Assembly: GCA_963664815.2 (NCBI GenBank)
Contig: CAXXHB010000003.1
Span: forward strand, 2,624,001 to 2,688,000
DNA from: Spirochaetota bacterium
GTDB lineage: Bacteria; Spirochaetota; UBA4802; UBA5550
Length of the DNA: 64,000 nucleotides
Reading direction: 5' to 3'
Below, piece by piece: positions 43,801 to 47,600 of the stretch. The translations under genes were made by a program, and so were the position numbers. A model generated the notes under the pieces. The model had not been told where the DNA came from, made no database searches, and saw nothing but the letters and a program-made list of their open reading frames with translations. Numbering within the stretch: the first letter of the stretch is position 1; the number at the start of each line of letters is the position of its first letter.

Positions 43801-44361
43801 TTGATAACTTATTTGCCGGAGAGAAATATTAATACAGAAGCTAAAATAAACCGCTGCAGGCCGGGATTTGGTGCTTCATGTTCATTCTGCTGCGGTAGCC
43901 ATAACTATACTCTCTCTCCTGATTTCATTGAAGAGATGTTCATAGCAAGGGGTAGTCAAACAGCACGGTTTACAGCGAAACATCCAGAAAGTACATGCAG
44001 CGAAAAGCTCGTCAAGGATGGTATGCAATGTCCTAATGTCGGTATAACTGATCAGGATCCCGGGATGGTGTGCTGTCTCACATATTTCGATGATCATACA
44101 GGATGCGAGTTTAAATCTTTTTTTAAAGGTACATGCAAAAGCTTTCTCTGTGTTGCCTGGAATGAACTCACAGACAGACAGGTATTATTTGCTGCAAAAC
44201 TTATGCGTGACTGGTACTATTACAGCCTACTAATAAACTCTCTGGAACTTTTAATGGAACTGTGTGCTGAATATGAAACCCCTGAAAATGTGCCACCTGA
44301 AATTCTTGAAGAACTGAAGATTGATCTTATAGGAAAACTGATGGAAGATGATATGATTTGA
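43801..44361 (+). CDS. Cys-rich hypothetical protein (start uncertain)
   Basis: SCSFCCGSHN, QCPNVG, VCC, CKSFLC, DWYYYSLLI. Confidence 0.65.
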   Translation: MITYLPERNINTEAKINRCRPGFGASCSFCCGSHNYTLSPDFIEEMFIARGSQTARFTAKHPESTCSEKLVKDGMQCPNVGITDQDPGMVCCLTYFDDHTGCEFKSFFKGTCKSFLCVAWNELTDRQVLFAAKLMRDWYYYSLLINSLELLMELCAEYETPENVPPEILEELKIDLIGKLMEDDMI

Positions 44362-44753: not shown

Positions 44754-45662
44754 ATGAAAATCGGAATTATCGGAGCAGGATCTCTCGGTTCATTATTTGC
44801 CCACTATTTTCAAGAGCACCTGATCAACTTTGTTATCTACGAGAAAAACAGCGATATTGTTGATAATATCCGTGAAAACGGACTTATCATGATAAAAGGG
44901 AATTCTTCAAAAACAATTAAAACATCTATAAGTTCATCACCTGATATTCTGAGTAATGCAGATGTGTTATTTCTCTTCGTTAAAAGTTATTCAACATCTG
45001 AAGCTCTTCAGGATGTGATATCTTACTGCAATAAAAATGTTATCCTCGTATCACTTCAGAACGGTCTCGGGAATATTGATGAAATAAAAAAACATTTTGT
45101 AAATGGTAAAATAGTATATGGTACTACAACAATCGGTGCAACAAAATCTTCTTTAAATTCCGTAGTCTCAGGCGGATCAGGAATAATAAATATCGGTGGA
45201 GATGAAAACGGTAACGTTCTCAAAATACATCATCTTTTAAACAGTGCCGGACTTAACTCGTACGTAGTTGACCGGCCTGATTATTTTCTCTGGCACAAGG
45301 CCGTAATAAATGCCGGTATAAATCCAATAGCAGCAATTCTCGGATTACCTAACGGAGGAATACTTGCAGATAAATACGCCACAATGCTTCAGGAATACAT
45401 TATAAAAGAAGCTGTAAATTGTGCAGTTGCCAATAATATCGATATGGATTTTTCTGAAATTCTTAGAACAACACGGGATATCTGCGAAAAGACTTCTATA
45501 AATATATGTTCCATGCTTCAGGATATCAGGAATGGGAGAAAAACCGAGATAGACAGCATCAATGGAAAAATAATACAATACGCAGAATGTAAAGGTATTT
45601 CAACACCATATAACATGACAGTGTATCTTATTATAAAATCAATGGAGACTAATCAGGAATAA
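44754..45662 (+). CDS. panE: 2-dehydropantoate 2-reductase
   Basis: IIGAGSLG, VKSY, SLQNGLG, W.KAVINAGINP, SMLQDI..GRKTEIDSING. Confidence 0.93.
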   Translation: MKIGIIGAGSLGSLFAHYFQEHLINFVIYEKNSDIVDNIRENGLIMIKGNSSKTIKTSISSSPDILSNADVLFLFVKSYSTSEALQDVISYCNKNVILVSLQNGLGNIDEIKKHFVNGKIVYGTTTIGATKSSLNSVVSGGSGIINIGGDENGNVLKIHHLLNSAGLNSYVVDRPDYFLWHKAVINAGINPIAAILGLPNGGILADKYATMLQEYIIKEAVNCAVANNIDMDFSEILRTTRDICEKTSINICSMLQDIRNGRKTEIDSINGKIIQYAECKGISTPYNMTVYLIIKSMETNQE

Positions 45663-46626
45663 AACCTATGGCCCTGTCTCTACCATCCTCTTTGGCTTTA
45701 TAGAGAGCTTTATCAGATCTTTCTTTAAGCTCATCAGCATTTGTTGCATTATATGGCAATGTTGCAAATCCCATACTGCATGAAAGCCTTAATTCTTCAT
45801 GCTCCGGAAATCTTAAATCTCTTATCGCAGAACACAAAGCATCACACTTCTGTTGTGCACATTCATGACCAGCTCCGGGAAATAAAAATATAAACTCATC
45901 ACCGCCATACCTTACAAGTATATCATCTTTGCTGAATACTTCCCGAAAAACCTGGGCCGAGGTTACTATCAGTCCGTCACAAAACTCCTGCCCGTACTTC
46001 GTGTTGAGAGACCCGAATCTGTCCATATCAAACATCACAAAGCTGAGACTGCTTCCCTCAGTTTTAGCCCTGTTAACAAGCCCTTCAAACGACTCTTCAA
46101 GGTAACGTCTGTTGAAGAGACCGGTTGCAGCATCAGTTATGGCACGTTTCCGCGATTCTGCTCCCCACTGAACCATCTGTGTCACAAAAGCACCTACATT
46201 CATTAGTCTCTTCACTGTTATCGCAAGCATGTTATTCATTATCTTTACAGCACATTCAGGCATAGTTCGAGTAATATGTGTAAAGTCATCAGTATGCATC
46301 ACAAGAAAAATACTATCTTCAACAGCCCTGCAATTGGCTGACCTCGGCGCCTGATCGATGATTGACATCTCTCCAAAAAAACTGCCGTCAGTAATTTCTG
46401 AGAGAACAACCTCCTTCCCCTCTGTATCAATTATGAATATAGAAACTTTTCCTTTTATAACAACAAATAGTTCATCCCCCGGGTCACCCTCTCTGCAGAT
46501 CAAATCACCTGCAGAAATATCCTTTTTTTTCATTTCAGCAGCGATTTTAGCAAGATCATCATCACATGTATCGGAAAAGATTGATACATTTTTAAGAATA
46601 TTCACATTATTATATTTTTGCATCAC
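45649..46626 (-). CDS. cNMP-binding domain diguanylate cyclase (GGDEF motif intact)
   Basis: FFGEMSIIDQAPRSA; DAATGLFNRR, FDMD, RYGGDEF, ALYKAKEDGRD. Confidence 0.9.
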   Translation of the reverse strand: MMQKYNNVNILKNVSIFSDTCDDDLAKIAAEMKKKDISAGDLICREGDPGDELFVVIKGKVSIFIIDTEGKEVVLSEITDGSFFGEMSIIDQAPRSANCRAVEDSIFLVMHTDDFTHITRTMPECAVKIMNNMLAITVKRLMNVGAFVTQMVQWGAESRKRAITDAATGLFNRRYLEESFEGLVNRAKTEGSSLSFVMFDMDRFGSLNTKYGQEFCDGLIVTSAQVFREVFSKDDILVRYGGDEFIFLFPGAGHECAQQKCDALCSAIRDLRFPEHEELRLSCSMGFATLPYNATNADELKERSDKALYKAKEDGRDRAIGFIPD

Positions 46627-47600
46627 TCTTTTACATCCTCCGGAAAAAGAATAACATTCCCACCCCTCGCACGTCCTGCAAGAGGAAGTTCATGGGTGAT
46701 GGATATTAATTCATCAGATGTATCGGCATGTCCGGGGAATATCGCTATCCCTATGCTCATTGATAAATACACATCATTGGTTTTAGTGGCTCCGGAAATA
46801 TCCAGATTATTGAACATTGAAAGAATCTTCTGAGCCTCTTTGAAACAATCCTCTCTTCCGAAGCCAGGGAGTATAACACCGAGTTCATTACCCATATAGC
46901 GGAGCACTGTTCCTCTATCACCCATAAAATGATTCAGCGCAACTGACATTATCTTTAAGGTGTCATCTCCGGCTTCATGACCATAATTATCATTAATATA
47001 TTTAAAATTGTCCGGCTTCATCAGTAGAAGCCCTACAGATTCTGATCTGTTCTTCATAAAACCAGGCAGCGTCTCTTCGAGAAATGTTTTATTATAAAGT
47101 CCAGTGAGCTTATCACCATAAACCTGGCGTTTCAGTTCCTGGATTAAGGCGGAGTTTTCTCGTACAAGGGAATTTGCATTTCTTATACGGCCTGATATTA
47201 TTTTTAAAAATTCATAAAGAATTATTGCCGCTATGCCGGGATGATTTTCCAGTATTTCACGAAAACTGTCAGACTTCCCCGGAATTCTCAACATTACAGT
47301 TTCTCCCAATGCGACACCGGATGCATTGAAATCCGCATCAGTAAAAAATTCGAGTTCTCCTATTATATCACCTGGTACAAGTTCTGCAATTATCGAATTA
47401 CCGTTATATGGATCACTCTTGAGAATCTGAACAGAACCGGAAACAACAATATATAAAACCCCCGATCTCCCGCCTTCGTTAAATATTTCATCTCCGGTAT
47501 TATACGAAATAAAGTCCGAATAACCGGAGATCAACTCCAACCCTCTCTCATCAAGCGATGAAAATATTTCAGCTTTCCGCAGCCAGTCTTTTTTTTCCAT
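46623..47600 (-). CDS. cNMP-binding domain protein with degenerate GGDEF (MGNEL)
   Basis: GDIIGELE; DKLTGLYN, KPDNFKYINDNYGHEAGD, RYMGNEL; stop overlaps the next start. Confidence 0.88.
   Translation of the reverse strand: MEKKDWLRKAEIFSSLDERGLELISGYSDFISYNTGDEIFNEGGRSGVLYIVVSGSVQILKSDPYNGNSIIAELVPGDIIGELEFFTDADFNASGVALGETVMLRIPGKSDSFREILENHPGIAAIILYEFLKIISGRIRNANSLVRENSALIQELKRQVYGDKLTGLYNKTFLEETLPGFMKNRSESVGLLLMKPDNFKYINDNYGHEAGDDTLKIMSVALNHFMGDRGTVLRYMGNELGVILPGFGREDCFKEAQKILSMFNNLDISGATKTNDVYLSMSIGIAIFPGHADTSDELISITHELPLAGRARGGNVILFPEDVKE

Follow-up and report, generated by a model that had tools for sequence, protein, structure and literature searches.

A candidate enzyme/pseudoenzyme heteromer of paired cNMP-sensor GGDEF proteins in Spirochaetota

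GGDEF cyclases are regarded as homodimeric, and in genome censuses every GGDEF gene is scored singly, as 'active' or 'degenerate'. A 64,000-nucleotide stretch of DNA from a Spirochaetota bacterium (assembly GCA_963664815.2, contig CAXXHB010000003.1, positions 2,624,001 to 2,688,000; here called the window) carries two adjacent genes, A and, downstream of it, B, each encoding a cNMP_binding sensor domain (cNMP, cyclic nucleoside monophosphate) joined to a GGDEF domain. The active site of the A domain is degenerate, and that of the B domain has intact metal, GGDEF and phosphate motifs. The explanation preferred here, to which a probability of roughly 45% is given, is that A and B are a co-evolving enzyme/pseudoenzyme heteromer of cNMP-sensor GGDEF proteins with one complete catalytic half-site. 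The sequence pattern of the two proteins, their co-conservation, their natural fusions and the co-diversification of the partners are observed directly and carry this reading. If it is correct, a degenerate GGDEF copy would be half of an enzyme, not a relic or a receptor.

The initial annotation of the window described two genes for 325-residue proteins with the same cNMP_binding and GGDEF architecture, and both the open reading frames and the Pfam matches agree with that description. A matches the GGDEF model with E 3.1e-29 (102.3 bits) and the cNMP_binding model with E 3.8e-17 (62.5 bits); the corresponding values for B are E 2.9e-37 (128.4 bits) and E 4.4e-24 (84.7 bits). Both proteins lie above the gathering cut-off of the GGDEF family (PF00990), which is 23.8 bits. 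A and B are 25% identical over 295 residues (BLASTP, E 2e-30), and in NCBIfam both match generic GGDEF models only, with no equivalog at cut-off. All of the motif strings quoted in the initial annotation occur in the translations: LLLMKPDNFKYINDNYGHEAGD, RYMGNEL, LAGRARGGNV and DFNASG in A, and FDMDRFGSLNTKYGQEFCD, RYGGDEF, ALYKAKEDGRDR and APRSAN in B. Active-site residues are numbered below as in PleD, the numbering being taken from published passages, with B aligned to DgcR.

Protein B retains the metal-binding D327 and D329 (FDMD), the GGDEF motif (RYGGDEF), the phosphate-binding Lys442 and Arg446, and Arg-Arg after DxLT..N; it also has the guanine-binding Asn335 and Asp344. Judged by sequence, B therefore has what would be expected of a competent diguanylate cyclase at the metal Asp, at GG[D/E]EF, at Asn335/Asp344 and at Lys442/Arg446. 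A further residue expected of such enzymes is Lys332, termed the transition-state stabiliser, and here B has Gly; Thr stands at 336 and Gln at 340. Protein A has Lys195 at the metal-Asp (D327) position, MGNEL instead of GGDEF (RYMGNEL), and Arg310 and Gly314 at the phosphate-binding Lys442 and Arg446 positions. Because Lys195 replaces Asp and MGNEL replaces GGDEF, A lacks both the metal Asp and the GG[D/E]EF motif of a diguanylate cyclase and is not classed as one. It retains the FK lysine Lys200, together with Asn203, Asp204, His208, Asp212 and Glu239, which correspond to K332, N335, D336, H340, D344 and E371, respectively. Protein A is thus a degenerate, putatively nucleotide-binding GGDEF protein (a pseudoenzyme), in which catalytic residues are lost and the guanine-binding Asn/Asp are kept.

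Two other assignments were tried for the pair and rejected. A role as a receptor of cyclic di-GMP (c-di-GMP) through the inhibitory site (I-site) would call for RxxD five residues before GGDEF; this is absent from the window's pair, A having G-D-R-G and B having S-K-D-D, and the motif is present in other sub-families. Hypr GGDEF proteins are recognized, according to published passages, by Ser replacing Asp344, and neither A nor B has lost the Asp.

The reciprocal losses reported in the initial annotation are not peculiar to the window, as they recur across all of the 69 A-type and 62 B-type units that were aligned and on which the column counts are based. The A-type loci were hand-picked from tables and are not a random sample: they come from relatives of the window's genome (30 loci), from frames of 640–690 residues in that table, from 20 places outside the order and from two public contigs. 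A profile search of public contigs with the A-type alignment was swamped by generic GGDEF patterns, and two of the 80 loci kept from it are A-type (L056 and L057). All 69 A-types have Lys at the D327 position, and K332, N335, D336, H340, D344 and E371 are each kept in 69/69; Gly stands at R446 in 68/69 and Arg at K442 in 61/69. The first Gly of the GGDEF motif is replaced by Arg (46) or Met (15) and the third position is Asn (41) or Asp (28), giving an A-type signature of Lys-Pro-Asp, Arg/Met-Gly-Asn/Asp-Glu and Gly-Gly-Asn. The guanine pocket and Glu371 of A-types are invariant across sequences that are about 30–40% identical to one another.

B-types conserve a different set of residues. D327 and D329 are present in all 62, as are G-G-D-E, followed by Phe (60) or Tyr (2), and the Arg after DxLT..N; K442 is kept in 60/62 and R446 in 57/62. 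Position 332 is Arg in 42, Gly in 17 and Lys in 3 of the B-types, and the Gly is confined to the window's clade. The 336 position is occupied by Glu (34), Asp (9), Thr (9) or other residues (10), and His is found at the 340 position in only 32/62. The background for these counts is provided by 18 other GGDEF domains in the window's genome with the metal Asp and GG[D/E]E[F/Y] preserved: Lys332 is present in 17/18, Asp336 in 16/18 and His340 in 17/18, and both of the genome's B-type copies depart from this norm at K332, D336 and H340. Relative to the genome's own GGDEF background, B-types are relaxed exactly where A-types are fixed. The claim in the initial annotation that B has lost the lysine holds for the window's B, with its Gly, and for B-types in so far as Lys is found in only 3/62; as a statement of loss it is weakened by the Arg in 42/62.

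When the GGDEF domain of A was searched against 1.84 billion representative proteins, 100 of the best 150 matches carried the A-type signature, and 75 of these 100 are 300–399 residues long; the signature therefore goes with the A architecture. Many unrelated long proteins match A's GGDEF domain in two stretches and have two GGDEF-type motifs (P0311, P0334, P0346, P0348, P0371, P0375 and others), so that single chains with two GGDEF domains exist outside the A/B family.

Linkage of the two genes is conserved. B lies directly downstream of A in 46 of the 69 A-type loci and is fused to it, always in the order A–B, in 16 others (L040–L054 and L143; 15 frames from genomes plus one more), which amounts to 62/69 and bears out the co-conservation of the pair and its substitutions that the initial annotation had proposed as a check. 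Of the remaining seven loci, one ends within A (L020), and in another the contig stops after B has begun (L057); the other five are considered below. Among 58 unfused pairs, which include loci fetched later than the 69-locus count, 20 overlap, 27 are separated by 0–30 nt, 6 by 31–100 nt and 5 by more, with a median A–B gap of 7.5 nt as measured from predicted starts. In the protein database, chains consisting of an A-half and a B-half make up about 58 clusters of 642–686 residues, named only 'diguanylate cyclase'. The window's genome contains a second A/B pair (G000:C3:3619954-3621789; L002). The B protein of this second pair has Asn at the guanine-binding Asp344 position.

A FastTree phylogeny of 131 units places A and B on opposite sides of one branch with support of 100. 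Distances between A partners and distances between the corresponding B partners are correlated (r = 0.86, a value inflated by genome relatedness), and none of 500 partner shuffles exceeded 0.10. The two pairs of the window's genome belong to different sub-families for A and for B alike, and pairs therefore duplicate as units. A and B are two clades that co-diversify. In an even sample of the phylum, an A-type match (E <= 1e-40) is found in 63/301 genomes; within the window's order, families f1, f2, f5 and f7 have it in all sampled genomes, and three families outside that order have it in 12/17, 8/28 and 3/6 genomes. In two large families the match is absent (0/45 and 0/38 genomes). Source names also point to Spirochaetota. 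The A/B split is ancient, and both proteins have been kept across several orders of the phylum.

Complex modelling bears on whether A and B meet physically. The A:B model scores 0.67 and the best of three controls 0.01; the mark applied is reached by 116/157 solved complexes and by 2/215 mismatched pairs, these rates being approximate since our own alignments were used. At least 95% of contacts are shared between runs, and the predicted local distance difference test value (pLDDT) of the partner is at least 85. In the predicted interface, residues 117–160 of A run parallel to and in register with residues 118–161 of B, and parts of the cNMP domains also take part, which supports an in-register stalk heterodimer at the level of the model. 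In homodimeric cyclases, coiled-coil linkers ending at DxLT are described, in published passages, as setting whether the GGDEF domains meet productively (PMC8041772). The last three core layers of the stalk are Ile/Val, Leu and Leu/Val/Met in A, and Gly (62/62), Ala/Ser (62/62) and Ala (56/62) in B; this difference does not speak for heterospecific pairing, since A:A zippers would pack as well.

The chemistry proposed for the pair builds on the geometry published for GGDEF cyclases. Hallberg et al. (PMC6456294) reported two contacts across the dimer: one protomer positions its fourth-position Glu to take the proton from the 3'-OH of the GTP bound to its partner, and a conserved Arg after DxLT stacks on the guanine of the opposite protomer. 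Published excerpts also assign the metals that activate the alpha-phosphate, bound by D327 and E370, to the protomer holding the attacked GTP, and describe K332 as a phosphate binder (through its main chain) and a transition-state stabiliser of its own site. Given this geometry of metals, Glu and Arg, B alone would supply the chemistry for one phosphodiester bond.

We infer a heteromer with a division of labour, a product and an effect of cNMP along the following lines. A and B would associate laterally by way of their sensor domains and long linker helices, in the architecture of a homodimer with two different chains. B would be the sole complete half-site, with the metal Asp, GGDEF, the phosphate-binding Lys/Arg and the cross-dimer Arg. 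A would contribute a guanine pocket, the FK lysine and the fourth-position Glu; because it is without the Mg-binding Asp and the beta/gamma-phosphate binders and has the guanine pocket, it would hold the second guanine nucleotide, whose 3'-OH would attack the GTP that B activates. To join the 3'-O of the nucleotide in A to the alpha-phosphorus of the GTP in B, the dimer would use B's metals, Lys442/Arg446, Glu and stacking Arg, and would need from A the guanine pocket only, which is invariant in A-types. The reciprocal bond could probably not be made in the usual way, since the metal site of A is gone in every A-type; the intermediate might re-bind, Lys195 might stand in for the metal, or the bond might never be made. 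The product would accordingly be either c-di-GMP, made in two steps at one competent site, or linear pppGpG. The invariant Glu in A hints that its role is more than passive. The composite site that the initial annotation had likened to C1/C2 adenylyl cyclase is plausible as regards asymmetry; it would probably not operate through the lysine named there, as B would supply all of the catalytic groups for one bond.

The input would be cNMP bound to B, acting through the stalk on the productive meeting of the GGDEF domains. B matches the cNMP_binding model (PF00027) and has the pocket Glu and Arg (FGE...PRSA); A matches the model and has Phe for the Arg. The window's pair thus has a canonical cNMP pocket in B only, in agreement with the initial annotation (DFNASG versus APRSAN). 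The pocket Arg is kept in 41/69 A-types and replaced by Phe in 13/69, the window's A among these, and it is kept in 58/62 B-types. The second pair of the genome (L002) shows the reverse, with RSA in A and loss of the pocket Arg in B, and fused forms keep the Arg in both halves. Ten class III cyclase domains are encoded in the window's genome, so a cNMP signal is available, and the cNMP control envisaged in the initial annotation could draw on them. In the passages available from a 2022 review, Bd1971, an EAL phosphodiesterase, is given as the only characterised cNMP_binding protein in c-di-GMP networks, and no cyclase with this sensor is named. The proposed heteromer would provide a direct link from cAMP or cGMP to c-di-GMP through a cNMP_binding domain.

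A third gene accompanies many relatives of the pair. A DHH-family phosphoesterase of about 390 residues lies directly after B, in the order A–B–DHH, at 13/14 loci fetched with a B–DHH fusion query (L156–L169), and at L156 it is truly fused to B. B is followed by DHH in the outgroup nearest to the window's clade as well (L171), and cNMP–GGDEF–DHH fusions account for at least 55 protein clusters of 715–770 residues. By sequence, the solved structures closest to this DHH protein are those of TM1595, a DHH/DHHA1 phosphodiesterase (E 3.5e-8), and of a 'phosphodiesterase acting on cyclic dinucleotides', the GdpP catalytic domain (E 7.7e-6). In the window's genome, the DHH homologue is unlinked to the pair (G000:C3:3327573-3328757; L170:1098-2273). 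In a more ambitious proposal, which is unlikely, the pair would act as a GGDEF nucleotidyltransferase that is an obligate heterodimer; it would have one catalytic half-site, and A would bind the acceptor guanine nucleotide with Lys in place of Mg. Such an enzyme would release a linear product (pppGpG or shorter) as its true output or would make c-di-GMP in two steps by flipping, as in cGAS/DncV, and ancestrally would have belonged to a three-part cNMP-gated module with a downstream DHH/DHHA1 phosphodiesterase.

Several observations weigh against the enzyme/pseudoenzyme heteromer. Five A-type loci (L029, L034, L039, L144 and L147) have no B in the flanks fetched. GGDEF residues are absent from the confident A:B interface. 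The complex model may have passed through likeness, because like complexes have already been solved, namely sensor–stalk dimers of related families, and the test also lets through close relatives of true partners (10/12 colicin pairs). The score, obtained for the A:B pairing and three controls, does not separate a heterodimer from a homodimer; the heterodimer claimed in the initial annotation thus gains from 0.67 against 0.01 for the best control and stops short at this distinction. Covariation in the stalk, computed as mutual information with average product correction over 98 non-redundant pairs, shows no in-register enrichment, with a mean Z of 0.04 at offset 0 and of -0.20 to +0.25 at offsets -8 to +8, and sub-family structure dominates. 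In the AlphaFold2 fold of a natural A–B fusion (mean pLDDT 83.3; predicted template modelling score, pTM, 0.53), the low-confidence stretch between the halves is just 5 residues (322–326), a link that would fit just as well if fused chains dimerized in the arrangement A:A'/B:B'. The fourth-position Glu is kept by A in 69/69, which is unexplained if A's nucleotide is never attacked, and B might be a competent homodimer, most B-types having Arg at the lysine position.

In a rival explanation, B is an ordinary homodimeric, cNMP-controlled diguanylate cyclase, and A is its partner in the same pathway without a catalytic role and without a shared site; A could sense guanine nucleotides, serve as an adaptor or be a dominant-negative subunit that draws B into unproductive heterodimers. 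This is possible, if somewhat doubtful. B keeps all the residues reported as essential (D327, N335, D344, GGDEF, K442 and R446), and since published passages describe phosphate binding for residue 332 by its main chain only, Gly or Arg may be tolerated there; degenerate GGDEF domains are likewise described, in published excerpts, as GTP sensors (CC_3396 and FimX). The short inter-half stretch suits stacked A:A' and B:B' dimers, and paralogues tend to pass the complex test whichever is the true partner. However, B has lost Lys332 in 59/62 and His340 in 30/62, and A keeps both in 69/69; the genome's other GGDEF domains with intact motifs almost always keep Lys332 and His340, so that their loss would be unexpected if B works alone. 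The invariant guanine pocket and Glu371 of A are also a stronger constraint than an adaptor needs. The initial annotation had instead the FK lysine of A reaching across the dimer to replace the missing lysine of B, each protein depending on the other's residue. The distribution of Lys at 332 (69/69 in A, 3/62 in B), the Gly in B of the window's clade and the published naming, in the passages available, of K332 as transition-state stabiliser are in its favour, but the same body of published text places K332 in the phosphate loop of its own site, and the cross-dimer residues reported are Glu371 and the Arg after DxLT (PMC6456294). Because 42/62 B-types have Arg at this position, a like-for-like replacement acting in cis, a lysine in trans is unnecessary in them; nor did the complex model give any GGDEF–GGDEF contact. 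A trans-acting lysine is therefore quite improbable. Least probable by far is that A and B are tandem paralogues independent of each other, linked neither physically nor functionally, of which the degenerate copy is decaying. Tandem duplicates are common, and five A-type genes are without B, but the ancient split with both copies kept across several orders, the 16 fusions, the tight or overlapping junctions and the co-diversifying partners all oppose this, and the invariant columns of A, which are not those of decay, led to rejection of a decaying duplicate.

The coordinates of the pair and of its parts are listed in Table 1. On the coding strand, the A/B junction reads ...GAG TGA TGC, so that the 4-bp overlap is GTGA if B starts at GTG 46626; with a start at ATG 46623 instead, it shrinks to 1 bp (TGATG). 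The initial annotation gave this overlap as 'ATGA', the only wrong detail in its description of the genes. GGAGGA lies 9 nt 5' of the GTG of B, and the arrangement of the junction, as far as the sequence can tell, indicates translational coupling. The neighbour of B is a convergent PanE/ApbA ketopantoate reductase gene (44754..45662, + strand), and upstream of A there is a 553-bp AT-rich spacer, followed by genes for an HtrA-like protease and a HEAT-repeat protein; because these neighbours are unrelated to it, the pair is taken as its own two-gene unit. The 3' ends of B and of the PanE/ApbA gene share 14 bp (window 45649–45662), and no terminator-like hairpin is found between these convergent ends. 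A Cys-rich open reading frame of 186 residues without a Pfam match lies at window 43801–44361 (+ strand).

Table 1. Positions in the window of genes A and B, their domains and selected sites
Feature	Position	Strand	Basis
Gene A (upstream), 325 residues, ATG start; cNMP_binding + degenerate GGDEF (pseudo-cyclase)	46623..47600	-	Open reading frame, Pfam, A-type clade
Gene B (downstream), 325 residues from GTG or 324 from ATG; cNMP_binding + GGDEF with intact metal, GGDEF and phosphate motifs	45649..46626	-	Open reading frame, Pfam, B-type clade
A cNMP_binding domain, residues 32-120; pocket phosphate-binding Arg replaced by Phe (DFNAS)	47241..47507	-	Pfam
A linker ('stalk') helix, residues 117-160; predicted B-contact surface	47121..47252	-	Complex-model interface, heptad core columns
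A GGDEF domain, residues 162-303; degenerate active site	46692..47117	-	Pfam, invariant columns
A Lys195 codon AAG, at first metal-binding Asp position (PleD D327)	47016..47018	-	Coding strand
A/B junction: GGAGGA 46636-46641, GTG 46624-46626, TGA stop of A 46623-46625, ATG 46621-46623	46621..46641	-	
B cNMP_binding domain, residues 36-118; canonical FGE...PRSA pocket	46273..46521	-	Pfam
B stalk helix, residues 118-161 (ATG numbering); predicted A-contact surface	46141..46272	-	Complex model, heptad columns
B GGDEF domain, residues 162-318; DMD + GGDEF + AKxxGR kept, Gly/Thr/Gln at K332/D336/H340	45673..46143	-	Pfam, alignment
B codon GGG, Gly replacing the conserved FK lysine	46012..46014	-	Coding strand

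In a literature search, mostly outside subscription journals, no paired or heteromeric GGDEF enzyme and no characterised cNMP_binding–GGDEF cyclase was found described, and the matches to 'tandem GGDEF' are GGDEF/EAL proteins. A/B is thus apparently an undescribed, conserved enzyme/pseudoenzyme module. If the heteromer exists, it would offer a natural asymmetric system in which residues acting in cis and in trans during c-di-GMP synthesis can be sorted, including K332, D336 and H340. The fusions found in nature could serve directly as constructs, and the linked DHH phosphodiesterase supplies a pathway that can be tested.

Among solved structures, the GGDEF domain of B is best matched by DgcR of Leptospira biflexa (PDB 6zxm; E 7.6e-24), and the predicted A:B contact resembles the homodimers of DgcR and PadC in that a parallel linker helix ends at DxLT. 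Unlike those cyclases, A/B consists of two unlike chains, one with a dead metal site, and the sensor is a cNMP_binding domain. Control of c-di-GMP turnover by cAMP or cGMP is described, in published passages, for Bd1971 (cNMP_binding–EAL) and Lcd1 (GAF–GGDEF, activated by cAMP); according to the same passages, Bd1971 degrades c-di-GMP and Lcd1 senses cAMP by its GAF domain, and neither is given there as a two-subunit system, unlike A/B. GdpP/YybT (PAS, degenerate GGDEF and DHH/DHHA1, as described in published excerpts) shares with many A/B relatives the combination of a GGDEF-type domain and a DHH/DHHA1 phosphodiesterase, DHH lying after B or being fused to it in those relatives. The GGDEF domain of GdpP is degenerate, whereas here DHH follows the intact GGDEF protein, and it is unlinked in the window's genome.

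Heterodimers are known among class III cyclases, such as the C1/C2 domains of mammalian adenylyl cyclase and the alpha/beta subunits of soluble guanylyl cyclase, in which each site is built from both chains. By its sequence pattern, A/B resembles them in having two paralogous catalytic domains, one with an active and one with a degenerate site, on fused or separate chains. It differs in that GGDEF chains each hold their own nucleotide and the chemistry joins the two, and A/B is known here from sequence. CC_3396/PdeA and FimX, according to published passages, have lost the GGDEF motif and kept nucleotide binding, much as A keeps the guanine-binding Asn/Asp. Those domains are described as regulating an EAL domain in the same chain, whereas A stands as its own protein, has an intact GGDEF protein as its partner and bears a distinct signature.

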